Shown piece by piece: positions 7,264-24,786 of a stretch of DNA of 38,182 bases. The notes under the pieces were generated by a model, which did no database searches, was not told the DNA's origin, and saw only the letters and a list, made by a program, of their open reading frames with translations. The stretch's first letter is position 1; each line of letters opens with the position of its first letter. Position numbers and translations under genes: made by a program. Source of the DNA: Pseudanabaenaceae cyanobacterium (GTDB lineage Bacteria > Cyanobacteriota > Cyanobacteriia > Pseudanabaenales > Pseudanabaenaceae). Where the stretch lies: assembly GCA_044358815.1 (NCBI GenBank), contig JBIKNH010000012.1, positions 1-38,182 on the forward strand, in the 5' to 3' direction.

Positions 7264-7686
7264 ATTGAATTAAATTGAATTTGTGCTGTGGGTGCTGCGG
7301 TTTATCAAGCAGTCTCAGAAATAGAACCATAAAATTAGATATTGTATATATTGGTTCAAGACAGGTAAGGGAAGTAATTCTCTTGCCTATTTTTTTATAT
7401 TGATTGGGATTGATTAGGACTAATTTGGAATTGATTTTAATAGAAGTCTTACGGAAGATTTTAGAGACTGATCTCTAGACTTTCGACTGTTCTCACTTCG
7501 TAGTGATTTGCCATAGGTTTTGTTGCGAATTGCATAAAGGCATAAATCAGAAGGTGGTGCTAAATAGGACAGGGTGCTGAGTTCTTCCCGTAGCACTGTC
7601 TAGCCTTACTTCATCCTTTCCATCTTAGGACTACCCATTTTAGGACTACCAAATCGTGAACCTAATGAAGCTGAATTAGCGATATT

Positions 7687-8274
7687 TTAAGAATCGCGTG
7701 GTTTATCTGGGATGTTTATGCCATAGAGAAACATATGCAGAATTTCCAGAGGTGACATGGGTGGGCTATGGATCATAATATCGTCATTGCTGGGATGAAG
7801 ATGAAAGCGTATATCTCGCTGATCGTTGTTATGATCTGGCAGATTGAGATCGATTCTTAGAAAAGGAACTTTAGTTTCTCCTTCTCTTTGCGGGAACCTT
7901 ATTTCAAAGTCAAATCCTATAATTTGAGCAGGTTTACAAGTTTCATCTATAGTAATCGCAAAATCAAACCAGCAGCCATTATTTAGTTTGAAATGTGGGA
8001 CATGAAACTCTCGCTTTTGGTTTTTATCTCCACCCATAATTTCAGAATAGCCTTTTTGGGGAATTACAGATGATGGGCGTAACTTTAGCAGCTTGTTAAT
8101 TTGATCTAACCTATTAAGTACAATTCTTTCATCACTAGCCAATGTTAGACATTTCAGGATTTCTGCTCGTAAAATCTTGGCATTTTTTACGTTCAGTGAC
8201 GTATTGCTTAATGACCGCTCTTGAACATCAGCGCAAATTTTTTGCCAACTATTTTTGTCGCTCAAGCAAGTCAC
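7687..8274 (-). CDS. hypothetical protein (195 aa), third gene of the AT-rich operon
   Basis: Overlaps the preceding gene by 26 nt. Contains His/Asp-rich segments (FHVPHF, RIDLNLPDHNNDQRDIRFHLHPSNDD) that could coordinate metal. No recognised family. Low GC. Confidence 0.5.
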   Translation of the reverse strand: MTCLSDKNSWQKICADVQERSLSNTSLNVKNAKILRAEILKCLTLASDERIVLNRLDQINKLLKLRPSSVIPQKGYSEIMGGDKNQKREFHVPHFKLNNGCWFDFAITIDETCKPAQIIGFDFEIRFPQREGETKVPFLRIDLNLPDHNNDQRDIRFHLHPSNDDIMIHSPPMSPLEILHMFLYGINIPDKPRDS

Positions 8275-8845
8275 CTCGATTAAGTAAAATTAGCCATTCC
8301 CCATATTCTGGATCGGTTGGTAGTTGACGATTCTCAGCTAAAGCAATTACTTCGTCATTAGTTTTACCTGTCCATTCTTGTAGTGCAGCTAGGCGGCGAT
8401 CGCATTCTTCATCACTCAGTATTTCAGCATCTTTTTGTAAATAATATATTCTTGCACCCAACCAACTCAGAAAATTAGGAGCATTATGTATCATTAAATC
8501 ATTAGCTTGCTCAGAAATGACAAGTAATCCTCCTTTATTACCTTTATCTAATCGACTTCTCAAAGCATCAAATATTTTCCATTGGTTACTATCCCAATCA
8601 TCTAATTTCCATAGTAAAAAATATTCTTCTGATGCTTTACTAATTTGATTAATTAAATCTCTTGCTCCAGATTCACCAGAGATAGTAACTGTGATACATT
8701 CACTAAAAATTTCAATAGTATCTTGTAAGTCTGTAACTATCGATTCTATGTCACTAATATCAACAACAAGAACCATCCAGATATTTGCGTCTGGACGCGC
8801 TCTAATTCTTTGCAATAATTCATCTACAGAAAATAACTTAATCAT
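8249..8845 (-). CDS. hypothetical protein (198 aa), second gene of the AT-rich operon; possible small alpha/beta domain with acidic clusters (VVDISDIES, KLDDWD)
   Basis: Its start overlaps the upstream NTPase gene by 8 nt (ATG within 8838-8845), suggesting translational coupling. There are no TM segments and no recognised family. Low GC. Confidence 0.55.
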   Translation of the reverse strand: MIKLFSVDELLQRIRARPDANIWMVLVVDISDIESIVTDLQDTIEIFSECITVTISGESGARDLINQISKASEEYFLLWKLDDWDSNQWKIFDALRSRLDKGNKGGLLVISEQANDLMIHNAPNFLSWLGARIYYLQKDAEILSDEECDRRLAALQEWTGKTNDEVIALAENRQLPTDPEYGEWLILLNRGDLLERQK

Positions 8846-10043
8846 CTAAAACTCCAGTTACAATTTTATTCTCAATAACTGCAGCTATTGCAGGGTGAAC
8901 TATAAAACGTGGTTTAGGATAACGATATTCCAAGATGTGACCTGTGTGTAATAACTCCCAGTGCTCAGAATTGCTAGGAAAAAAAGAACTTCGGGCGAAT
9001 ATGCGAAGAATAGTCATCTCTGAAGCATTTAAGCCCATAAGTTTTAAACGAACAAAGGGTAAAATTGCTTGTTCAACATGCTGAGCTGTAATTCTATCAG
9101 CTCCATCTAAGTAAGCCTCCTCAATCGACATTTGAGAAATAGATATAAAATCTCGTAAAACCCCTCCTGAACATGATATTAACAGTGACCGTGCATCTGA
9201 AGTGAAAATGTTATCGGGATCTCTCACGCCCATAATATCAATAAAAAACTGTTTAGCTTCAACACTATCAAATACATCAAGATATGGTAGATATACTAAA
9301 AGCCCTTTAATGTTTTCTCTTAGCATTTGGGTTATTGCTACAGAACCCACGATAATTGAGCCAATTCCAGCAATTTCCCTAACCATTCTTGCATCATTTA
9401 AAGCGGATTCAAAAAATAGTTGTGGATCAGCTATTCTATCTAGTCCGTCAAAGAGGAAAACAATTTCTTTTGCAATTTTCTGTTTGACAGCTTCTTTCAA
9501 AGTAGATAAATCTTGCACAAGAGATTCTATGATTTTTTGTTTTTTGTTATTTAGCGATAGTATTCCTTGATAATCAAGAGAAATCTGCTCTTCCCACGGC
9601 TCTAAACTTTGCTCAGGCACATACACTACTGTTTCGCTATATCCATGAGCCACTTTTTCGATTCGTTTTTTACATTTTTCTAGTATGGTATTCTTCATAT
9701 CACCCAAGATATTTATTAACTCAAGTCCCGCAATAGCAATTAAAGCACCTGCCTGAAGATTAGAGATGTCAGTAAAAAGACTGACATCAACATAGATAGC
9801 TTGTATATCTTCCAGTTCATTTAACGCACTTTGAGTTAGCAAAAGTTGGGTGGTTTTACCTGCTCCAATACCACCCAAAAGAATCTTTATTGACGAAGGA
9901 TTTACCTCAATTCTTCTGGTAATCTCTCTAATAGGACTGTTTGGCAATTTAACATAAAATCCTCGCTCGACAGCACGCTGAGGATTGGAAGTACCTTCAA
10001 AAGCTGACATCAGCTTACGGAAAAACTTTAGGCGCTCAGACAT
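8838..10043 (-). CDS. P-loop NTPase, STAND/NACHT-like (Walker A GGIGAGKTT; Walker B VFLFDGLDR); first gene of a 3-gene AT-rich operon
   Basis: ORF of 401 aa. The GxGxGKTT P-loop follows FYVKLP...REITRRI, and the hhhhDGhD Walker B resembles the NACHT signature. The C-terminal ~120 aa look helical/winged-helix-like (MTILRIFARS). There are no repeat-type sensor domains. GC is markedly lower than the flanks. Confidence 0.7.
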   Translation of the reverse strand: MSERLKFFRKLMSAFEGTSNPQRAVERGFYVKLPNSPIREITRRIEVNPSSIKILLGGIGAGKTTQLLLTQSALNELEDIQAIYVDVSLFTDISNLQAGALIAIAGLELINILGDMKNTILEKCKKRIEKVAHGYSETVVYVPEQSLEPWEEQISLDYQGILSLNNKKQKIIESLVQDLSTLKEAVKQKIAKEIVFLFDGLDRIADPQLFFESALNDARMVREIAGIGSIIVGSVAITQMLRENIKGLLVYLPYLDVFDSVEAKQFFIDIMGVRDPDNIFTSDARSLLISCSGGVLRDFISISQMSIEEAYLDGADRITAQHVEQAILPFVRLKLMGLNASEMTILRIFARSSFFPSNSEHWELLHTGHILEYRYPKPRFIVHPAIAAVIENKIVTGVLDD

Positions 10044-10173
10044 GGCATTCTCAATCTAAATAAATGACGAGTTAGTACTTACATTCTAGCGGATGCGTTA
10101 GGATCTGCAAAGAAGCCAGATAAAGCCCTGCGCTAGAAATATGCTATTGCGATAAGATAATTGTTGCAAGCCA

Positions 10174-12519
10174 ATGATCGTCACTGCTTTAAATATGACC
10201 ACTGACACCGACAAGCGCCAGTTTTCCCCCGCACAACTTAAAGCCGAGGGACTCACCCCCGACGAATATCAAATGATTTGCGACCGCTTGGGACGGGAAC
10301 CCAATCGCGCTGAGTTGGGTATGTTCGGCGTGATGTGGTCGGAACATTGCTGTTACAAAAACTCCCGCCCCCTCCTAGGGCAATTTCCCACCAAAGGCGA
10401 GCGAATCTTAGTCGGACCTGGCGAAAACGCTGGCGTAGTCAAGATTACCGATGATCTTGCCATCAGTTTCAAAATTGAAAGCCATAACCGCCCCTCAGCA
10501 GTAGAACCCTATCAAGGAGCCGCAACTGGAGTCGGTGGCATTTTGCGCGATATTTTCACCATGGGAGCGCGACCCGTGGCGTTACTCAATGCTTTACGTT
10601 TTGGCGAACTGTCTGATCCTTGGGTCCGGAGCCGCGTGCGGGGCATCGTCGATGGCATCGCTGGTTATGGTAATTGCGTCGGCGTGCCCACCATCGGCGG
10701 TGAAGTTTACTTCGATAAATCCTACAATCGCAATCCTTTGGTTAATGCAATGGCAATCGGGATTATGGAAACTCCCGAAATCGTCAAAGCTGGAGCGGTT
10801 GGGGTCGGTAATCCAGTGGTTTATGTCGGTTCCACAACGGGGCGCGATGGCATGAAAGGCGCGAGTTTTGCCAGTGCTGAACTGTCTGCTAAATCTGAAC
10901 AGGATCGCCCAGCAGTGCAAGTGGGAGATCCATTTTTAGAGAAGTCATTAATCGAAGCCTGTTTAGAAGCTTTTAAATCAGGGGCAGTGGGAGCCGCCCA
11001 AGACATGGGAGCCGCTGGCTTGACATGTTCCACTTCCGAAATGGCAGCTAAAGGGAATGTGGGAATTATTTTAGATCTCGATAAAATCCCCGCACGGGAA
11101 ACGGGTATGGTTCCCTATGAATATTTGCTTTCTGAATCCCAAGAGCGGATGCTTTTCGTGGCTCATAAAGGACAAGAACAAGATCTGATTGCGATTTTTG
11201 AACGCTGGGGTTTACATGGCGTAGTGGCAGGAGAAGTCATTGCTGAGCCAATTGTACGGATTCTCTGGCATGGGGAAACTGCCGCCGAAATTCCCGCCAC
11301 AGCCTTGGCAGACAATACACCAATTTATCACCGCACCCTCGGACCAGTACCAGAATATGCGCAAAAAGCTTGGGCTTGGAACGAAGCCGAAACCTTAGGG
11401 AATCTTCAAGTATCCCCCCAAGATGCTTTCCTGACATTGCTAGATACTCCTTCCATTGCGTCTAAGGCGTGGGTCTATCGCCAATATGATCATCAAGTAC
11501 AGAACAATACGGTGGTATTTCCTGGGGGAGCCGATGCCGCAGTGATTCGGATTCGTAAACAAGATTTTGGCATTGGTAATTTAGAACCTAATCAGTTCGC
11601 TAATACCAGAGCTTTAGACAATTCCATTGGTGTAGCGGCAACCGTAGACTGTAATGCCCGTCTGGTTTATCTCGATCCCTACGAAGGTGCAAAACTGGCT
11701 GTAGCTGAAGCTGCTCGGAATCTTTCCTGTGTGGGTGCGGAACCTTTAGCCGTAACCGATAATCTCAATTTCGGCAGTCCCGAACATAGCATCGGTTATT
11801 GGCAACTGCACGAAGCCTGTCGCGGTATTGCCGACGCTTGCCGTGAATTAGCCACCCCAGTTACTGGCGGTAATGTTTCTCTCTATAACGAAACGATTCA
11901 GAGCGATGGCACCAGTAGCCCGATTTATCCTACCCCTGTGATTGGCATGGTGGGGTTAGTGCCTGACGTGACGAAGGTTTGCGGACAGGGTTTCAGAGGC
12001 GTAGGGGATGCCATTTACTTAATTGGTGGCGATGCAGTGAGTTTGGCTGGTTCCGAATACCTAGCGACAATTCTTGAAACCGTAGCTGGTAAACCTGTGG
12101 CAGTGGATTTGAATCTAGAGAAGACTGTCCAAGCCGCAAACCGTTATGGAGTAGCCCACGATTGGCTCAGATCTGCCCATGACTGCGCTGAAGGTGGTTT
12201 GACGGTGGCGGTGGCAGAGTCGGCAATCGCTGGTGGTCTCAGTGCTGTGATTGATTTAGCGAATCCTCAGGAACAACATCTCACCGTGCTGTTATTTGGC
12301 GAAGGTCCGAGTCGAATTGTGGTAAGCGTTGCGCCTGAAAACGTGGCAGCTTGGGAAGCTTATCTAACAAGTCAAGAAGTTCCAGTACAAAAAATTGGTG
12401 CGGTGGCAGCGGCAGATCAAGATTTCACCATTAAGGTGGCGGGTGAAACCTTGATTAATGCGCCATTACAGCAACTGATTGATACTTATAACCAGGCAAT
12501 TCCTCGCCGCATGGTTTAG
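10174..12519 (+). CDS. purL: phosphoribosylformylglycinamidine synthase subunit PurL
   Basis: Conserved small-PurL N-terminus ([40 protein letters not shown]) and paired AIRS/AIRS_C domains; 781 aa is close to the typical ~740 aa. The true start may be the ATG at 10195 (MTTDTDK). Confidence 0.9.
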
Positions 12520-17378: not shown

Positions 17379-20300
17379 ATGTTTAATCCTATTGCTGCAC
17401 TAACTGACTTAGACGTAAAACTAGCAATTATTCGGCATCCTTTGATGCTGCCCCCAGAAACCTTGGTTACTGATGCAATTGCGGCGATGAATCGTCATCG
17501 GGTGACTGGAATCTCAAATACTGGGACAGATCATTCTAGTTCTAGTCAACTGAAGCAACTCCATAACTCTCAACAGGATCTACAGGATCTACACCTTGAA
17601 ACCCACTTTAGCTGTGTCTTAGTGACCGAAGCATCTCGTTTAGTTGGGATTTTCAGTAGACGGGATATGGTGCGTTTAATTGCCCAGCAATATGCTCTGG
17701 AAAGATTACGTTTAGCAGATGTGATGATCCGTAAGGTCATCTCTCTACCGGAAATAGAATTTACGAATGTATTCGTAGCTACGGGATTATTACAGAAATA
17801 TCGGATTCGTAATTTACCCACCGTTGATGCTGACGGCAGAATTACGGGAATTATTACCCATGAGAGCCTCTGCCAAATTGCGCGACCTGTGGATTTGTTG
17901 CGGGTGCGTCAAGTGCAGGAGGTCATGACCAGTCCCGTAGTGTGGACCCGACCTGAGGCGACTATTTTAGAAGTTACCCGATTGATGCATCAACATCGCG
18001 TGAGTTCGGTGGTGATTGCACAGCCTGATTTAAGAACTGATTTAAGAACTGATTCAGGGACTGACTTAGAGAATAATCTAGAGACTGATTCTACAACTAC
18101 TGATCAGATAACTGACCAGATAACCAACCAGGTAAATAATAAACCAAATCATAGTTGTTCTTCTATTAAACCCATAGGAATTATTACGGAAAGAGATTTA
18201 GTCCAGTTTCATGCCCTTGGTTTAGCGGTGGAGGAGTATAACGCCGCCCAGATCATGAGTAGTCCAGTTTTTACGATCTTACCGGAAGAACATCTCTGGA
18301 ATGCCCAGCAGATTATGACACAACGGATGATCCGATCTGTAATTGTGGTGGATCAACAGCATAATCTCCAGGGTATTATTACCCATACCAGTTTATTGCG
18401 AGTATTAGATCCTACGGAACTTTATAAATTAGCCGAGGTTCTAGAAACCAGAGTTAATCAATTGGAATCGGAAAAAGTTAGAATTCTGGCACAGCGTACC
18501 GAAGATCTAGAACGAGAAGTTCAAGAACGGACCCATAAACTAGAGCTTACCCTAAAACGAGAAAAAATCATTAATCGGGTAGCCCAAAGGATTCGTAATT
18601 CCCTAGATCTCCATGAAATTTTAAATGCCTGCGTTATGGAAGTGCAGCGCTTTTTAGACTGTGATCGGGTGATTGTTTATCAGTGCGGGTGTGATCGTAG
18701 TGGTGTAGTGATTGCAGAGTCCGGCAACCCAAATTTTGACAGTCTTTTGGGAATTGATATTCCAGATAATTACTGTGAGAAGGAAACCATAGAGTTAATG
18801 AATGACGATGGAGCAGAGGCTGCCAATGGGCAAGTCATCGTGGATGATATTGATTCTGGCGCTTATCCACAGGAACAAATTGCATTCTTTAATCGGTATC
18901 AAGTTAAAGCCGGTCTGATGACACCGATCCGGCTAGATGGCAAGCTATGGGGGTTATTAGCAGCGCAGCAATGCCAATCTAGCCGTCAATGGTATTCCGA
19001 TGAAGCCGAGTTATTAAGTGCTTTGGCGGTGCAGTTGTCGATTGGGATTCGGCAATCCATCGCTTATACTGAAATGGAACAACAAGTCACCGAATCAAGA
19101 CTATGGCGCAAGCGCTACGAAGCCGCCGCCAGTAGCAGTGGGCAACTGATTTATGAATATGATCATCGTACAGGAAAAATCATTTGGGGAGCGGGTGTTC
19201 AGGAGACTTTAGGTTATAAACCGGAAGATGCTCCGTCGGATTTCCCATCTTATTGGCGTATCGTTCACCCTGACGATTTACCTCAGGTAGAAGCACTAGT
19301 GGAAGTATGTATTGACCTTAAAACTGTTTTTCATTACCAATATCGAGTATTACATCAGAGGGGAGAATATATTTGGGTTGAAGAACGGGGACAATGGCTG
19401 ACTGATCCCAATGGAGAAGCATATATCGTGGTGGGGATGGTGTCTGATATTACCCAACGGAAGTTAGTGGAGCAATCCCTGAAAACACAACGAGATTTTA
19501 GCCAGCTTATTGCGCAGATTACCAGCCGATTTGTGCATATCACATTGGCAGAACTAGACTCAGAAATCAATCGCAGTTTGCTGCTAATTGGTGGTGCAAT
19601 GGAGGCTGATACAAGCTTCCTTTACCGTTTAGATGATGCTAAAAGTACTCAGACCATGACCCACGAATGGACTAGAGATGGCTACTCTAGCAGGATGCAG
19701 CTAAATCAGCACCTACCCCTAGGAATCTGTCCTTGGTTCCAAAATTTAATTGCGGAACGCAAAACTTGCTATATACCGGACATAGACCATGCTCCCAACG
19801 ATGCAGCAGTAACAGTGGCACAGTGGCGCAGACTAGAACTAAAATCGATTCTGTTAGTTCCTTTATTACAACAAAATCAGGTGATTGGCTATATTGGCTG
19901 CGGTTCTTTGAGTACGCCGACATATTGGGAAGAGGAAGTGATTAACTTAGTCACGGTAATGGGACAGTCCATTGTGAATGCCCAAGAAAGACTGATTAAC
20001 CGTCAAGAACTAGAAACCCTCAATCATTCCCTAGAAGCAGAAATAGCCAGAAGAATTGATGAATTTCAACAGATTTATAGTCTACAGCAAGCCATTCTCA
20101 ATAGTTTTGATTATGCGATTATTTCAACGGATATCAACGGCATCATTCGGACATTCAATGCTGGCGCTGAAAACTTTTTAGGTTATAGCGCTAGTGAAGT
20201 GATTGGCAAAATGACTCCTGTAGTGTTTTACGATCCTCAAGAAGTCCAAGATCATGCCAACTACCTATCGGCAAAACTAGGGCGGTCTGTGAGTCCTGAT

Positions 20301-23300
20301 GTAACAGTTTTTACGATTGAGGGGGCAGAGGAATGTTCCGAAAAAGAATGGACTAACATTCGCAAAGATGGCACAAAATTTCCCATGCGTGCATCCATTT
20401 CTCCCCTTAAGGATATGGATGATCAGGTGATCGGCTTTGTCAGTATTGGTAGGGATATAACAGAAAAGAAACAAATTGCAGAGGCACTAGAAAAAAGTAA
20501 AAATCTGTTCCGGCAATTGTTTGACGCTAATGTAGTAGGCGTAATGTTTACGGACTTTAGCGGGGCAATTACCGATGCTAACGATTACTTTCTCAATTTA
20601 ATTGGTTATACCAGAGAAGAACTGATAAATGGGCAAATTAATTGGGAAGCTCTGACACCCCTAGCCCATCGCCACAAGGATATAGAAGCTATTAATCAGT
20701 TACAACTCCATCGTGCCGTTGTCCCTTGGGAGAAAGTCTACTACAATAAACAGGGTCACGAAGTACCAATTTTAATTGGGGTGGCACTCCTAGAAGATGA
20801 TGATGATCGTGGGAGTTGTATCTGTCTCATAATTGATATTACAGAACAAAAACGTTCAGAGCAACAACTCCGAGAAACCCAACAGTTTATTACGACGATT
20901 ATTAACACCATTCCTTTACCGATATTTTGGAAAGATCGACAGGGGAAGTTTTTGGGATGCAATCGTTTCTTAGTGGAACTCTTAGAGTTATCAAGTCCTA
21001 GTGAAATCATTGGTAAAACTGATGCAGAGCTTTCTCTAAATATAGAACAACTGGATGATCTCCACACGAATGATCAGATGGTGCTTAACTCAGGCACTAT
21101 GTTTTTAAGGATTCCTGAAATCCTGACACTACCGAATAACCAAAAGCGCTATATAGAAACCCATAAAGCACCACTGCGGAATTCCCACGGTGAGATTATT
21201 GGTTTAGTTGGTACATTTCAAGACATAACCCAGCGTAAAACCGACGAAGAACTATTACGGTTGAGTGAAGAGTCTTTCCGTAATGCCTTCGATAATACCA
21301 CCGTTGGCATGTGTCTTGTCTTAACCTCTGGTCATTTCCTGAGGGTTAATCAAGCATTTGCGAATTTAATAGGTTACGAACCATCACAAATGCAAAACAT
21401 GACATTCCGTGATATTACCCATCCGGATGACTTGGCTATGGATATAAAGTCAAGGGAGCAGGTTTTAAGTGGCGAAATTTCTAGCTATCATGTGGAAAAG
21501 CGTTATATTACTAAGTCTGGCAAACTAGTTTGGGGGCTATTGAGTTTATCCTTAGTCAGAGACTTAACGAATCAACCACTGTATTTTGTGACGCAAATCC
21601 AAGACATTACAGAACGGAAACAAGCCTTAGTCAAATTGCAGGCTAGCGAAAGCCGATTCCGCCAAATTTTTGAATCTAAGGTAGTGGGGATGGTATTAGC
21701 TGACTTCCAGGGCAATATCATTAATGCCAATGATCGTTTCTTAGAAATCCTAGGATATACCAGAAGAGAATTTGTTGAAAATGAGATTCGTTGGGATTTT
21801 ATTACGCCGCAGGAACATCAAGAAATGGATTTAACTTCCATGAGACACCTGCGAGAACACGGCATGATTACCCCTTGGGAAAAGGAATACTATCGCAAAG
21901 ACGGTACTAGAGTTCCTATTTTAATAGGAGCAGCACTGTTACCCAATAGCGAAGATCAAACGGTCTGCGTGGTCATCGACATTAGTGATCGTAAAGCCGT
22001 AGAACGAGCACTCCAGAACAGTGAGGAGCGATTCCGGCAGTTAGCTCAGGCTATTGATGCCGTCTTCTGGATTATGAGTTTAGATCGCAAGTCATGGGTC
22101 TATGTCAGTCCTGCTTACGAAAAAATCTGGGGTCGTAAATATATCAATCTCTATACTGGTACAGATCATTGGCTCGATACCGTCCACCCCGAGGATCGCG
22201 ACCGAGTGCGGGCGGCACTGCCCCAGCAAATTAGCGGCGATTTCAATCAGGAATATCGGATTATCCGTCCTGGGGGCGAGATTCGTTGGATTCATGATCG
22301 CGCCTTTCCGATGCAAGGTGAGAGTTCGCAAGTATATCTGATTGCTGGCATTGCTGAAGATATTACGGTGCGCAAGGTTTGGGAATCGCAATTACAATAT
22401 ACTAATGCCCAACTTGCCCGCGCCACCCGCCTCAAAGACGAATTTCTCGCCAGTATGAGCCATGAATTGCGCACTCCCTTAAATGCAATTCTCGGCATGG
22501 CGGAAGGTTTGCAGGAGCACGTCTTTGGCGAACTAAATGATAGACAAATGAAATCAATTCAAACCATTGAACGTAGTGGCACCCACCTACTGGCTTTAAT
22601 CAATGACATTCTTGATTTATCAAAAGTCGAATCTGGTCAAGTACAATTATCACTGACTTCTAATGCTGTGCCACTGCTAGTGCAAAGCGGTTTAACTTTC
22701 ATTCAACAACAAGCGCGTAAAAAACGGATTGAGATTACCACAAGAATACCGCCTCAATTACCTTATGTTGAAGTAGATCAATTACGAATTCATCAGGTTC
22801 TGATTAATCTCTTAAACAATGCAGTTAAATTCACCCCAGAAGGGGGCAAGATTACTGTTACAGTGGATTATCCCTGTCCTCCGTTACCACCACTGAGAAA
22901 TATCGATATTGAAGATCTGGCATCTCGCAAGGGAAATTTCATTCGCATTTCCATCATTGATACTGGAATCGGTATCGCTCCGGAGAATATTAATAAATTA
23001 TTTCAGCCATTTGTCCAGATTGACAGCGCCCTGAATCGGCAGTATGAAGGTACGGGGTTAGGATTAGCTCTGGTCAAACGTTTAGTAGAATTACACAATG
23101 GTCAAATTAATGTGAGTAGTGAAGTGGGACGAGGGAGTTGTTTCACATTTGATTTACCTGCTTCTCCAGATACCGCCGCCCCCAATGCTGCCATCGAGGA
23201 ATTACCAGTTCCCCCCCCTTCGGATATTACAGGCACACCCAAGGTTGTTTTGTTAGTGGAAGACAATGCCATGACCGTTAGTACGATATCGAGTTATCTC

Positions 23301-23615
23301 AAAGCCAAAGGTTACCAAATTATTTTGGCTAGTAACGGTTTAGAAGCCTTAGAAGTAGCCGAAAAAGATAGTCCAGATATTATTTTGATGGATATTCAGA
23401 TGCCCGGCATGGATGGTTTAGAAGCAATTCAACGAATTAGAGCCAACCCACTACTACAAAAAATGCCTATAATTGCACTGACAGCCCTAGCCATGAGTGG
23501 CGATCAAGATCGATGTTTAGCTGCCGGAGCCAACGAATATATGAGCAAACCTGTTAAAATGAAGGAATTAGTTAATGTTATAGAGAGGACTTTCGACAAT
23601 GCCTATGTCCACTAA
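17379..23615 (+). CDS. giant hybrid sensor histidine kinase (CBS pairs, GAF, multiple PAS/PAC, HisKA, HATPase_c, receiver)
   Basis: 2078 aa. The N-terminal CBS-like segments are interrupted by an acidic low-complexity insert (DLRTDLRTDSGTDLENNLETDSTTTDQITDQITNQ). GAF-like region (LLAAQQCQSSRQWYSDE). H-box SHELRTPLNAILGMAE. N/G boxes LNNAVKFTPEGGKI, DTGIGI, GTGLGLALVKRL. C-terminal receiver (VLLVEDN...DIQMPGMDGLE). Confidence 0.85.
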   Translation: MFNPIAALTDLDVKLAIIRHPLMLPPETLVTDAIAAMNRHRVTGISNTGTDHSSSSQLKQLHNSQQDLQDLHLETHFSCVLVTEASRLVGIFSRRDMVRLIAQQYALERLRLADVMIRKVISLPEIEFTNVFVATGLLQKYRIRNLPTVDADGRITGIITHESLCQIARPVDLLRVRQVQEVMTSPVVWTRPEATILEVTRLMHQHRVSSVVIAQPDLRTDLRTDSGTDLENNLETDSTTTDQITDQITNQVNNKPNHSCSSIKPIGIITERDLVQFHALGLAVEEYNAAQIMSSPVFTILPEEHLWNAQQIMTQRMIRSVIVVDQQHNLQGIITHTSLLRVLDPTELYKLAEVLETRVNQLESEKVRILAQRTEDLEREVQERTHKLELTLKREKIINRVAQRIRNSLDLHEILNACVMEVQRFLDCDRVIVYQCGCDRSGVVIAESGNPNFDSLLGIDIPDNYCEKETIELMNDDGAEAANGQVIVDDIDSGAYPQEQIAFFNRYQVKAGLMTPIRLDGKLWGLLAAQQCQSSRQWYSDEAELLSALAVQLSIGIRQSIAYTEMEQQVTESRLWRKRYEAAASSSGQLIYEYDHRTGKIIWGAGVQETLGYKPEDAPSDFPSYWRIVHPDDLPQVEALVEVCIDLKTVFHYQYRVLHQRGEYIWVEERGQWLTDPNGEAYIVVGMVSDITQRKLVEQSLKTQRDFSQLIAQITSRFVHITLAELDSEINRSLLLIGGAMEADTSFLYRLDDAKSTQTMTHEWTRDGYSSRMQLNQHLPLGICPWFQNLIAERKTCYIPDIDHAPNDAAVTVAQWRRLELKSILLVPLLQQNQVIGYIGCGSLSTPTYWEEEVINLVTVMGQSIVNAQERLINRQELETLNHSLEAEIARRIDEFQQIYSLQQAILNSFDYAIISTDINGIIRTFNAGAENFLGYSASEVIGKMTPVVFYDPQEVQDHANYLSAKLGRSVSPDVTVFTIEGAEECSEKEWTNIRKDGTKFPMRASISPLKDMDDQVIGFVSIGRDITEKKQIAEALEKSKNLFRQLFDANVVGVMFTDFSGAITDANDYFLNLIGYTREELINGQINWEALTPLAHRHKDIEAINQLQLHRAVVPWEKVYYNKQGHEVPILIGVALLEDDDDRGSCICLIIDITEQKRSEQQLRETQQFITTIINTIPLPIFWKDRQGKFLGCNRFLVELLELSSPSEIIGKTDAELSLNIEQLDDLHTNDQMVLNSGTMFLRIPEILTLPNNQKRYIETHKAPLRNSHGEIIGLVGTFQDITQRKTDEELLRLSEESFRNAFDNTTVGMCLVLTSGHFLRVNQAFANLIGYEPSQMQNMTFRDITHPDDLAMDIKSREQVLSGEISSYHVEKRYITKSGKLVWGLLSLSLVRDLTNQPLYFVTQIQDITERKQALVKLQASESRFRQIFESKVVGMVLADFQGNIINANDRFLEILGYTRREFVENEIRWDFITPQEHQEMDLTSMRHLREHGMITPWEKEYYRKDGTRVPILIGAALLPNSEDQTVCVVIDISDRKAVERALQNSEERFRQLAQAIDAVFWIMSLDRKSWVYVSPAYEKIWGRKYINLYTGTDHWLDTVHPEDRDRVRAALPQQISGDFNQEYRIIRPGGEIRWIHDRAFPMQGESSQVYLIAGIAEDITVRKVWESQLQYTNAQLARATRLKDEFLASMSHELRTPLNAILGMAEGLQEHVFGELNDRQMKSIQTIERSGTHLLALINDILDLSKVESGQVQLSLTSNAVPLLVQSGLTFIQQQARKKRIEITTRIPPQLPYVEVDQLRIHQVLINLLNNAVKFTPEGGKITVTVDYPCPPLPPLRNIDIEDLASRKGNFIRISIIDTGIGIAPENINKLFQPFVQIDSALNRQYEGTGLGLALVKRLVELHNGQINVSSEVGRGSCFTFDLPASPDTAAPNAAIEELPVPPPSDITGTPKVVLLVEDNAMTVSTISSYLKAKGYQIILASNGLEALEVAEKDSPDIILMDIQMPGMDGLEAIQRIRANPLLQKMPIIALTALAMSGDQDRCLAAGANEYMSKPVKMKELVNVIERTFDNAYVH

Positions 23616-24786
23616 AACTCCACCTAATTCTACTCCAACTGCTGACAGCAATACCGTTGTCATTTTGGTTGTTGATGACGAACCAGATAACTTTGATGTG
23701 ATTGAAGTTATCCTGAACAATCAGCCTTACCAACTACATTATGCTTCTAGTGGACAAGAAGCCTTAGATGTAATCGACATGTACCAGCCAGATTTGATCT
23801 TGTTGGATGTCATGATGCCAGAAATGGATGGGATTGAAACCTGTCGGTTAATCAAGGAGCAGTTACGATGGCGGAGTGTCCCTATCATTATTACCACTGC
23901 CTTAACTGCTAAAGAAGATTTAGCGAGATGTTTGGAAGCTGGAGCCGATGACTTTATCAGCAAGCCTTTAAACAGTTTAGAACTGAGGGCACGGATTAAG
24001 TCAATGTTGCGAATTAAGAGACAGTACGATACCATTCAGCGGTTTTCTGTTTTACAGCGAGATACGATCAATGTTTTGGGAGAGAACCTCAATAACTTAA
24101 CGGGGAGTTTAGCTGCTAAACTATCCCACGAACTGAATACGCCCCTCAATGGCATTATGGGTGTGATTGCTTTGCTGCGGCATAACATCGACCAGATGGA
24201 AATGTCAGAGATCAAAGAGACTTTGGGCTGGGCAGATGAATCAGCGCAACTTCTGTTTGCAATGACTAAAAGATTTCGCATCTATTTAGAATTAGAACTT
24301 CTAGTCAGTGAAGGCAAAAAGCTGACCCACCATTGCACTGAATTTAGCGGTGAAGCGTTGGTTATGGAATTAAAGCCTTATTTCGAGAAAGCGGAGCGAT
24401 TGGAAGACTTCGTTACGAACATTATAGGTGGTTATGTTGGGCTTTCGGAACATTACCTATCAATTTTGATTAGGGAACTAATCGATAATGCCATAAAATT
24501 CTCAGAACCAGGGACTAAAGTTGTTCTCAGTAGTCACATCAATCAAGACGTGATGGAAATTACCATCCACGATCAAGGTCGGGGTATGACGGAGGCACAG
24601 ATTGCCCGTGTTGGTGCTTTTATTCAGTTTGAGCGTCCCGCCCACGCCCAGGATGGTATGGGTATGGGGTTAAAAATTGCCCAACGGATTACTGAACTAG
24701 CTGGCGGAAAGTTCAGCATTCATAGTGTTTATCGGCAGGAAACCCTAGTAAAACTTACTATTCCTTTGGGTAAATTTATCCAGTAG
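23599..24786 (+). CDS. response-regulator receiver fused to a histidine-kinase core (REC-HisKA-HATPase)
   Basis: REC: VVILVVDDEPDNFDVIEVIL ... LDVMMPEMDGIE. H-box-like LSHELNTPLNGIMG. ATPase boxes IRELIDNAIKFSEPGTKV, HDQGRGMT, GMGMGLKIAQ. Overlaps the upstream kinase gene by 17 nt. Confidence 0.8.
   Translation: MPMSTKTPPNSTPTADSNTVVILVVDDEPDNFDVIEVILNNQPYQLHYASSGQEALDVIDMYQPDLILLDVMMPEMDGIETCRLIKEQLRWRSVPIIITTALTAKEDLARCLEAGADDFISKPLNSLELRARIKSMLRIKRQYDTIQRFSVLQRDTINVLGENLNNLTGSLAAKLSHELNTPLNGIMGVIALLRHNIDQMEMSEIKETLGWADESAQLLFAMTKRFRIYLELELLVSEGKKLTHHCTEFSGEALVMELKPYFEKAERLEDFVTNIIGGYVGLSEHYLSILIRELIDNAIKFSEPGTKVVLSSHINQDVMEITIHDQGRGMTEAQIARVGAFIQFERPAHAQDGMGMGLKIAQRITELAGGKFSIHSVYRQETLVKLTIPLGKFIQ

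Follow-up and report, generated by a model that had tools for sequence, protein, structure and literature searches.

The locus carries three overlapping genes on the minus strand, here called A, B and C (Table 1), within a window that comprises the whole stretch of DNA analysed (38,182 nucleotides from a Pseudanabaenaceae cyanobacterium). Gene A has an ATG start, encodes 401 aa and has 197 homologs at E<=1e-3, all of which share the sequence MSxRLKFFR at the N-terminus, and it is therefore a real gene rather than a chance open reading frame. Gene B lies downstream of gene A on the same strand with an overlap of 8 nt (ATGATTAA), and gene C, also on the same strand, overlaps gene B by 26 nt. The region upstream of gene A is 130 bp long, divergent and shared with purL; promoter and terminator scans gave no signal above the shuffled background, and the window contained no match to Rfam and no tRNA.

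Table 1. Features of the A-B-C locus, with positions in the window.
Feature	Position	Strand	Remark
Gene A, Orc/Cdc6-STAND-type P-loop ATPase with nucleotide-binding domain, lid and winged helix	8838..10043	-	
A residues 1-50, conserved N-terminal helices ahead of strand 1	9894..10043	-	Sequence comparison and model
A residues 55-66, Walker A/P-loop LLGGIGAGKTTQ	9846-9881	-	
A residues 116-190, hypervariable insert between helix alpha2 and the Walker B strand	9474..9698	-	Identity and length variation
A residues 194-203, Walker B IVFLFDGLDR	9435-9464	-	
Sensor-2-like motif SGGVLRD in the lid of A	9150..9170	-	S292, G293, G294, R297 and D298 invariant across phyla
A residues 314-396, winged-helix domain	8856..9104	-	
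Gene B, 198-aa acidic soluble protein	8249..8845	-	
Invariant C-terminal motif of B, LPxDPEYxEWLxLL	8261-8323	-	
Gene C, 195-aa alpha+beta protein, candidate output/effector	7687..8274	-	
Universal core of C, FLR(I/F)DLN..P.H.N....R.H.H	7792-7863	-	
Promoter-like hexamers upstream of A	10083..10111	-	Consensus match only; site count not above shuffled expectation

Gene A encodes an intact, compact P-loop ATPase of the Orc/Cdc6-STAND assemblage, in which a nucleotide-binding domain is combined with a lid and a winged helix. The initial annotation had described a P-loop NTPase with the motifs LLGGIGAGKTT and IVFLFDGLDR at a spacing of about 135 aa and a winged-helix or helical region at the C-terminus, all of which is borne out, with K63 and D199 located 136 residues apart and the C-terminal ~145 aa accounted for by the lid and the winged helix. 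Its description of a compact protein with no sensor repeats agrees with this architecture, and no repeat domains were identified by Pfam in the A protein or in the members of its family. The relatives among the matches listed are 360-479 aa long, and none of those listed can thus contain a fused TPR, WD or LRR sensor.

The nucleotide-binding motifs are strongly conserved. G57, I59, G60, G62, K63, T64 and T65 in Walker A as well as D199, L201, D202 and R203 in Walker B show no variation across cyanobacteria, Myxococcota and Acidobacteria. R9 is also invariant across phyla; it lies in the N-terminal helices, a segment with a mean pairwise identity of 74%. Position 200 is G or S across phyla, giving the Walker B pattern D-G/S-L-D-R, and the catalytic glutamate is consequently absent after the Walker B aspartate. 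The strand at residues 228-234 ends with V-G-S; across phyla, residue 234 is either S or P. Most cyanobacterial members have an arginine at position 242, which is not conserved across phyla, and in some distant members the arginine is displaced by one position. The SGGVLRD motif in the lid resembles the GDAR sensor-2 motif of the AAA+ proteins Cdc6/Orc1, and a near-invariant H383-P384 pair is located immediately past the wing hairpin.

The initial annotation had also suggested that a subdomain might be inserted between the Walker motifs, and it is present at residues 116-190. The mean pairwise identity of the insert is only 19% and its length varies from 57 to 148 aa, as compared to identities of 53-78% in the flanking core. 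Two helices (residues 100-113, within the segment ALIAIAGLELINILG at residues 100-114, and residues 119-133) come after strand 2 (residues 80-86), and the hypervariable hairpin and helix extend to residue 190; the insert itself is modelled as a helix, a low-confidence beta-hairpin and a long helix, with pLDDT values of 55-62 at residues 140-170. Its modelled position fits that of the helix-extension-helix or initiator-specific insert of Orc/Cdc6-type proteins, a clade for which a helix-extension-helix insert past strand 2 is a characteristic feature (PMC12839542). The label "sensor-less" that had been attached to the protein is doubtful, since specificity would most plausibly reside in the hypervariable insert within the ATPase, which is also a better candidate for a sensor than the partner proteins.

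Genes B and C represent, whatever their function, two conserved protein families without annotation. Protein B is strongly acidic (36 D+E versus 21 K+R), with an N-terminus that, as read by eye, alternates between hydrophobic-strand and helix-like patterns, and neither a transmembrane segment nor a DNA-binding antitoxin domain was predicted in it. It is the most conserved of the partners, with 85-92% identity among its closest relatives, which where named belong largely to Pseudanabaena. Records at NCBI misname the B protein "ABC transporter permease". Protein C is rich in His, contains an invariant polar cluster along successive beta-strands and has a charged beta-sheet face, and it has no known structural relative. 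From the conservation patterns alone, we infer a putative adaptor role for B and a putative effector role for C.

Searches of A, B and C against Pfam, NCBIfam, PADLOC and PHROG yielded nothing above cutoff. Neither A nor C had any PADLOC match, and B had no match beyond sub-threshold ones in Pfam, NCBIfam, PADLOC or the PDB, its only PADLOC hit being to CARF3 at an E-value of 0.023. Nothing meaningful was obtained when the three proteins were searched against PDB sequences with phmmer and profile hmmsearch, in which matches to S100 and armadillo proteins were low-complexity noise. Comparisons with hhalign gave no support for B as either a degenerate ATPase domain copied from A or a BrxB-like inactive P-loop protein, although with single-sequence templates this is a weak negative.

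The A-B-C triad was recovered in all 13 informative loci. Overlapping A, B and C genes were identified in Pseudanabaena, Nostoc, Lusitaniella, Symploca, Synechococcales, Polyangiaceae, "Deltaproteobacteria", Bryobacteraceae and Acidobacteria, and on a metagenomic contig of unknown origin (L018). These genes are best explained as a single conserved, translationally coupled module, for which no prior description was found in the literature. The functional tie to the two downstream reading frames that the initial annotation had proposed thus holds, but the "unusual split arrangement" is overstated, since there are known NTPases in this assemblage whose partners are encoded by separate genes, such as BrxC with BrxB and pairs of active and inactive STAND proteins (PMC12839542, PMC8195603).

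The triad is a horizontally mobile three-gene cassette of cyanobacteria, myxobacteria and acidobacteria. Its neighbours differ in every genus examined and the neighbourhoods are unrelated, although variable location is weak evidence for mobility because poor synteny is common in cyanobacteria anyway. The GC content of the cassette is lower than that of both flanks in 10 of 11 loci (in the window 0.362, as compared to 0.450 and 0.465). Two of the loci, L001 and L002, are 95% identical in DNA sequence from A through B to ~50 nt into C, after which no identity remains, and their C proteins are 58% identical. Between the window and L001, the identity is 53% for A, 90% for B and 77% for C. The sequence comparisons indicate that alleles of A and C have been exchanged around a conserved B.

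The flanks of the cassette in the window consist of housekeeping or signalling genes, which code for a YlqF-type GTPase, a TPM-domain protein, PurL and a 1252-aa protein in which GGDEF and EAL motifs were read from the translation. Among the ten immediate neighbours inspected for a defence island, nine had no PADLOC match, and the matches scattered among 78 neighbours were few and more distal. The cassette neighbourhoods are not defence islands, and this lack of enrichment, the nature of the flanking genes and the wide distribution of the cassette within Pseudanabaena would suit a lineage-specific housekeeping or regulatory ATPase complex, such as a MalT-like transcriptional or signalling switch unrelated to conflict. 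We consider such a complex unlikely, as the cassette shows a patchy spread across phyla (no more than 294 clusters at 50% identity out of 1.84 billion representatives), occupies a different locus in every genus examined, and combines a GC content below that of its flanks with a hypervariable insert in A and swapped alleles.

Small, tightly overlapping and AT-rich genes in an isolated islet, an acidic B, a His-rich C protein with a charged beta-sheet face and C alleles that are replaced between strains are features that could also be expected of a three-part toxin-antitoxin or addiction module, with C as the toxin, B as its neutraliser and A as an ATP-dependent regulator or chaperone. This is less likely again, given that there is no similarity to known toxin or antitoxin families, that B is devoid of a DNA-binding antitoxin domain, and that B rather than C is the most conserved protein, while antitoxins usually evolve fast; it also overlaps with the main explanation given below rather than excluding it.

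Lower still in probability is a module for DNA transactions that belongs to a mobile or replicating element. In such a module A, like TnsC, MuB or Orc1, would be bound to DNA as an ATP-dependent platform on which targets are selected, replication is initiated or partition takes place, and B and C would be accessory factors. The top structural neighbours of A, which are Orc1/Cdc6, TnsC and MuB, all bind to or polymerise on DNA, A has, besides its winged helix, an insert at the initiator-specific motif position, and the cassette is compositionally foreign. However, no transposase, integrase, replicase, Cas12k or TniQ gene adjoins the cassette in more than 12 contexts, no convincing flanking repeats or insertion scars were found, and the cassette was not recovered from collections of plasmids, phages and viral contigs, in which a plasmid tblastn search and a viral-contig scan gave no matches. 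Of the Walker B glutamate and the arginine finger that are typical of such ATPases, the A protein also lacks the former, and has no counterpart of the latter that is conserved across phyla.

The explanation that we favour, albeit tentatively and with less than even confidence, is that A-B-C is an uncharacterised biological-conflict or defence-type module, directed against phages or mobile elements and possibly abortive, that operates through an ATP switch. It is preferred over a housekeeping role because it better fits the evolutionary pattern of the cassette. The fold and motifs of A, the weak Pfam consensus across its family, the strict co-occurrence of the three genes, their differing neighbours, the low GC content, the hypervariable insert and the allele replacement all point in this direction, and an enrichment for conflict systems centred on NTPases has been reported for the taxa in which the cassette occurs (PMC7159879). 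This explanation is weakened by the lack of a recognisable effector domain, of matches to the PADLOC, PHROG, Pfam (above cutoff) and NCBIfam models, by the non-defence neighbourhoods and by the failure to find the cassette on plasmids, phages and viral contigs. In such a module, A would be a slow-hydrolysing ATP switch, in which binding of a ligand (foreign DNA or protein) by the variable insert or the winged helix would change the nucleotide state. The A protein might then multimerise, as do Orc/Cdc6, TnsC and STAND proteins, and recruit or release C via the adaptor B, with the conserved Asp/Arg/His face of C providing a catalytic or ligand-binding output.

More speculatively, and with a correspondingly smaller probability, A-B-C could be an immune system with three components that has not been described before in filamentous or social bacteria, with a variable sensor inserted in the ATPase domain of A, B as the conserved hub, and C as an effector in which both the fold and the His/Asp/Arg active site would be new, the alleles of A and C being shuffled between strains as in other arms-race loci. 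Should the cassette prove to be a conflict system, the Orc/Cdc6-STAND immune switches would gain a compact sensor-in-ATPase design, along with a new effector fold. It would also imply that such a switch can be reduced to ~400 residues with its output delegated to separate proteins, which bears on how large NLR-like receptors came to be assembled. With three small soluble proteins encoded in ~2.4 kb, the cassette should be easy to test.

We compared the A protein to the ATPase families and systems that it most resembles. None of the Pfam models for NACHT, KAP and ATPase_2 reached its gathering cutoff (26.7, 20 and 33.2 bits, respectively) with the window protein. The NACHT model (PF05729) scored 13.1 bits, over the Walker B region at residues 171-208 only. 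Across the family, at E<0.1, NACHT matched 14 of 37 members (best E 0.0037) and ATPase_2 35 of 37, and the weak Pfam consensus is ATPase_2, AAA_22 and KAP rather than NACHT. The NACHT Walker B motif has the form hhhhDGhDE, and the DGLD of A, with no glutamate after the aspartate, does resemble this motif, as had been noted; R203, which is invariant, stands in place of the last acidic residue, and a short motif match is not diagnostic alone. Membership in the NACHT family is not upheld by the scores, and no NACHT structures were among the top structural matches. The initial reading of A as a minimal STAND NTPase of the NACHT clade, whose effector and sensor would be supplied by the two genes downstream, is the least probable of those considered here.

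The KAP-family Walker B motif is DDLDR. The KAP model (PF07693) scored 13.3 bits, and KAP proteins typically have transmembrane helices in their insert, whereas none are predicted in A, where the maximum 19-residue hydropathy (1.71, in the core helix alpha2) gives no convincing transmembrane segment. ATPase_2 (PF01637, "archaeal ATPase"; 2qen, 2fna) scored 19.7 bits, and a match to it has been precomputed for some A homologs; this family has no established function and its description does not include B or C partners. BrxC of BREX (PDB 9zll; PMC12839542) is ~1200 aa long and showed no similarity to A beyond the P-loop in hhalign, in which B and C were also unlike BrxB/DUF1788 and BrxA/DUF1819 (probabilities <1%), and the PglX methyltransferase and PglZ were not near the cassette in any locus. 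RdrA of RADAR (PDB 8fnt, 8fnu), of ~800-900 aa and paired with an adenosine deaminase, is likewise unlike A. TnsC and MuB retain a catalytic Walker B as well as an arginine finger, and Tn7-like and Mu elements would be expected to have adjacent TnsB/MuA, TniQ and element ends, none of which are associated with the cassette.

The STAND proteins in the sense of Leipe et al. (2004) have in common with A the core of nucleotide-binding, helical and winged-helix domains. Where STAND proteins have a sensor-1 arginine at the end of strand 4 (hhhToR), A has S or P at position 234, and in place of the GxP motif in the helical domain it has SGGVLRD, with an invariant arginine and no proline. The STAND winged-helix histidine contacts the ADP beta-phosphate, and A has its H383-P384 past the wing hairpin. 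In comparison with CED-4/Apaf-1, plant NLRs, Avs, MalT and NACHT proteins, A has neither a C-terminal repeat sensor nor a fused effector, and all STAND Pfam models were below cutoff. The STAND resemblance put forward initially holds for the domains of the core, and not for the sensor-1 arginine and the GxP motif; as a broad placement it came close, since a passage in PMC8195603, citing Leipe 2004, regards STAND itself as part of the Cdc6/Orc clade. Archaeal and eukaryotic Orc1/Cdc6 (for example PDB 2qby, 1fnn, 2v1u) is closest to A in structure, at an identity of only 13-15% and with no sequence-level match of A to any solved structure, and the two share the sensor-2 arginine in the lid (the invariant R297) and the C-terminal winged helix. 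The Orc1/Cdc6 Walker B is hhhhDE, with a catalytic glutamate, as compared to D-G/S-L-D-R in A. The A protein lacks an arginine finger conserved across phyla, has a long and hypervariable insert and an extra His-Pro helix past the wing, and is a bacterial protein encoded with two obligate small partners and no replication-origin role. Gene A encodes a compact ATP-binding switch, the nearest structural relatives of which are the Orc1/Cdc6 DNA-replication initiators, not the NACHT immune receptors.

Gene A, the P-loop ATPase of the cassette, is a real ORF with an ATG start, and 136 residues separate K63 from D199. In a search that covered 5.8 billion clustered proteins, 197 relatives of A were recovered. 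Among the 120 matches listed, the relatives were 360-479 aa long and contained no repeat domains, and all that were named to organism were cyanobacterial (Pseudanabaena, Snowella, Tumidithrix). The only domain fusion among the matches listed is seen in P0092, a homolog of 473 aa with a C-terminal extension of ~70 residues that matches Pfam IF2_N (E = 4.7e-8).

Coordinates of the cassette genes, of features within gene A and of other features in the window
Feature	Position	Strand	Remarks
A	8838-10043	(-)	401 aa
B	8249-8845	(-)	198 aa
C	7687-8274	(-)	195 aa
A, N-terminal helices	residues 1-47		AlphaFold model
A, nucleotide-binding domain, five strands	residues 52-57 (1), 80-86 (2), 193-199 (Walker B), 228-234 (4), 249-252 (5)		AlphaFold model
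A, P-loop (Walker A)	residues 55-66	(-)	LLGGIGAGKTTQ
A, stretch	residues 100-114	(-)	ALIAIAGLELINILG
A, insert	residues 116-190		AlphaFold model; helix, low-confidence beta-hairpin, long helix
A, Walker B	residues 194-203	(-)	IVFLFDGLDR
A, helical lid	residues 257-313		AlphaFold model
A, winged helix	residues 314-396		AlphaFold model
ORF, 241 aa	4292-5017	(+)	Pro/Lys/Ser-rich N-terminal half with repeated LPKLP motifs, hydrophobic C-terminal half; no Pfam match; overlaps 3' end of convergent YlqF-type GTPase gene
Intergenic region downstream of C, 423 bp	7264-7686		no Rfam match
Terminator-like hairpin	7363-7388	(+)	after TPM-domain gene
Tandem 15-nt duplication	7620-7649		CCATCTTAGGACTAC / CCATTTTAGGACTAC; in the intergenic region
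Hybrid histidine kinase, 2078 aa	17379-23615	(+)	CBS, GAF, multiple PAS, HisKA/HATPase, receiver domain
Receiver + histidine kinase gene	23599-24786	(+)	overlaps hybrid histidine kinase gene

No curated model matched A of the window above threshold. The best Pfam match was to ATPase_2 (E = 8e-4, 19.7 bits as compared to a cutoff of 33.2 bits), with further sub-threshold matches to AAA_22, KAP_NTPase, nSTAND5 and NACHT, the last of these (E = 0.086) confined to the Walker B region. When 37 members of the A family were scanned one by one, ATPase_2 was matched by 35, AAA_22 by 29, KAP by 26, NACHT by 14 (best E = 0.0037) and AAA_16 by 13. The AlphaFold model of A, built from an alignment of 37 sequences, was confident (pLDDT 86.5, pTM 0.82), and two structure searches agreed on its closest relatives. 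Orc1/Cdc6 occupied ranks 1-9 in Foldseek (E = 7e-10 to 6e-7), and the rest of the top 50, which held no STAND chains, consisted of RuvBL, TnsC, RuvB, an RFC clamp-loader subunit and further ORC/Cdc6/MCM-loading chains. It is improbable that the cassette as a whole is a DNA-transaction module.

A cross-phylum alignment that took in orthologs from Myxococcota, Acidobacteria and 'Deltaproteobacteria' (27-31% identity) revealed the invariant residues of A (R9, G57, I59, G60, G62, K63, T64, T65, D86, D199, L201, D202, R203, D217, R274, S292, G293, G294, R297, D298, Y311). H383-P384 is near-invariant, and conservation of R242, at the arginine-finger position, breaks down across phyla. Walker B lacks the catalytic Glu, since position 200 is G or S, and the STAND sensor-1 Arg is absent, since strand 4 ends in S or P at position 234. 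The lid motif SGGVLRD contains an invariant Arg and no Pro, and is therefore a sensor 2 of the Cdc6 type, not the GxP motif of STAND. Based on its fold, structural neighbours and invariant residues, A is thus a mosaic, in which fold and sensor 2 are Orc/Cdc6-like and Walker B is STAND-like, as possibly is the His after the wing. Published classifications place STAND within the Cdc6/Orc clade (PMC8195603, citing Leipe 2004), and count a helix-extension-helix insert after strand 2 among the hallmarks of the Orc/Cdc6-STAND assemblage (PMC12839542). Given the mosaic features and these classifications, we file A not as a NACHT but as a divergent member of this assemblage whose nearest relatives are ATPase_2 and Orc1/Cdc6. 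The initial annotation had proposed a NACHT-style split STAND, which holds only in part; a true NACHT mini-STAND is even less probable than a DNA-transaction module.

The inserted subdomain suspected between Walker A and B is present in the model, where it separates helix alpha2 from the Walker B strand. Across the family, the insert is 57-148 aa long with a mean pairwise identity of 19%, as compared to 53-78% for the flanking core, and is the most plausible candidate for a specificity determinant. Since this hypervariable candidate specificity element is embedded in an otherwise conserved switch, the earlier description of A as sensor-less is probably wrong.

The three genes share a strand, and start and stop codons overlap between neighbours. 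Wherever sequence suffices, B and C follow A: in the cyanobacteria Pseudanabaena (L001-L003), Nostoc (L004), Lusitaniella (L005/L006), Symploca (L008) and Synechococcales (L009), in Polyangiaceae (L010), two 'Deltaproteobacteria' MAGs (L012, L014), Bryobacteraceae (L015, with B and C short and divergent) and Acidobacteria (L017), and on a metagenomic contig (L018); loci without them stop at a contig edge. In the Acidobacteria MAG, A is frameshifted and split into two overlapping frames of 311 aa and 161 aa (L017, 143-1374), a sign of either pseudogenisation or a frameshift in the assembly, with B and C intact downstream.

B is acidic and soluble, with a pattern, read by eye, of alternating hydrophobic strands and helix-like segments and an invariant C-terminal motif, LPxDPEYxEWLxLL. 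Its orthologs are named 'ABC transporter permease' in NCBI/RefSeq, which is unsupported because B has no transmembrane segment (maximum 19-residue hydropathy 1.43), and JGI labels include 'DUF1192' and 'secretin'; given these properties of B, the names look like propagated annotation errors. The model of C was confident (pLDDT 86.4, pTM 0.83), with invariant polar residues that alternate on neighbouring strands (D104; E124, R126; R140, D142; R156, H158, H160), further invariant residues H148 and N150, and a universal core in remote members of RFDLN...H.N...R.H.H. C belongs to a small family of 294 clusters at 50% identity out of 1.84 billion representatives, and nearly all members among the matches listed are standalone proteins of 170-230 aa. 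With 379 aa, P0409 (L018, 5001-6140) is the most obvious outlier on the long side among the 150 representatives listed; no domain is assigned to its extra ~200 C-terminal residues, which may stem from fusion with a neighbouring gene. Neither B nor C matched Pfam, NCBIfam, PADLOC, PHROG or PDB sequences, and one of the two families apparently has a new fold.

The cassette forms a low-GC patch (0.36) amid housekeeping or signalling genes at 0.45-0.50. It is flanked by genes for a YlqF-type GTPase, a TPM-domain protein and PurL (Pfam) and for a 1252-aa protein with GGDEF and EAL motifs, as read from the translation; the large signalling locus at 17379-24786 (+) is unrelated. Cassette GC was below both flanks in 10 of 11 loci, and the neighbours were different genes in every genus. 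A housekeeping regulator is unlikely, if the highest-ranked of the alternatives to a conflict module. The DNA of the Pseudanabaena loci L001 and L002 is 95% identical across A and B and up to ~50 nt into C, beyond which no similarity remains; their C proteins are 58% identical, with all core motifs kept. A is identical between the two genomes, the genes downstream differ, and the transition (L001 and L002, 7830-8450) marks a recombination breakpoint at the start of C. Between the window and L001, B is 90%, C 77% and A only 53% identical, and among the closest relatives (largely Pseudanabaena where named) identity levels off at 45-57% for A and 85-92% for B. The divergence within C, the identities to L001 and these plateaus demonstrate that A and C alleles are swapped around a conserved B.

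The data show that the cassette is an obligate gene triad with a foreign composition and modular exchange of alleles, built around an intact P-loop switch of the Orc/Cdc6-STAND type that carries a hypervariable insert. We infer that A may be an ATP switch, slow-hydrolysing because the Walker B Glu is missing; a ligand bound by its insert or winged helix would make A change state and multimerise, with B as a putative hub or adaptor and C as the putative output. We tentatively favour a conflict module, a reading somewhat short of even odds; the pattern is similar to that of conflict systems centred on an NTPase, which have been described in cyanobacteria and myxobacteria (PMC7159879, PMC8195603). 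A defence role has substantial evidence against it. None of the components matched a known defence family, nine of the ten immediate neighbours have no PADLOC match, and plasmids, phages and viral contigs yielded no copy of the cassette. A TA-like addiction module is also unlikely, ranking below a housekeeping regulator and above a DNA-transaction module. Only a few distal neighbours have PADLOC matches, among them a Cas12f/TnpB-like protein, an AriA-type ATPase and Csx1. In Lusitaniella (L005/L006, ~8700-12100), a gene for a 1109-aa NACHT/NNH2/HEAT-repeat STAND protein, a PIN-domain gene and a DnaJ-domain gene lie ~2 kb from the cassette; of all the contexts, this one alone resembles a neighbourhood of conflict genes.

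No published description of the triad was found in the literature, and we rate the cassette, whose function is a proposal, as a module of three uncharacterised genes in which an ATP switch of a known class is joined by two unannotated partner families, and as a good, cheap candidate for experiments. By fold, the known proteins nearest to A are Orc1/Cdc6 and ATPase_2, and by logic STAND; by architecture, the known systems nearest to the cassette are BrxC-BrxB and RADAR. In hhalign, no homology was seen between B and BrxB or between C and BrxA, and none beyond the P-loop between A and BrxC. The pattern of the cassette also resembles RADAR, in which the defence ATPase RdrA works with a separate partner, RdrB. 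It likewise resembles BrxC, a defence ATPase that works with BrxB as its separate partner (PMC12839542).
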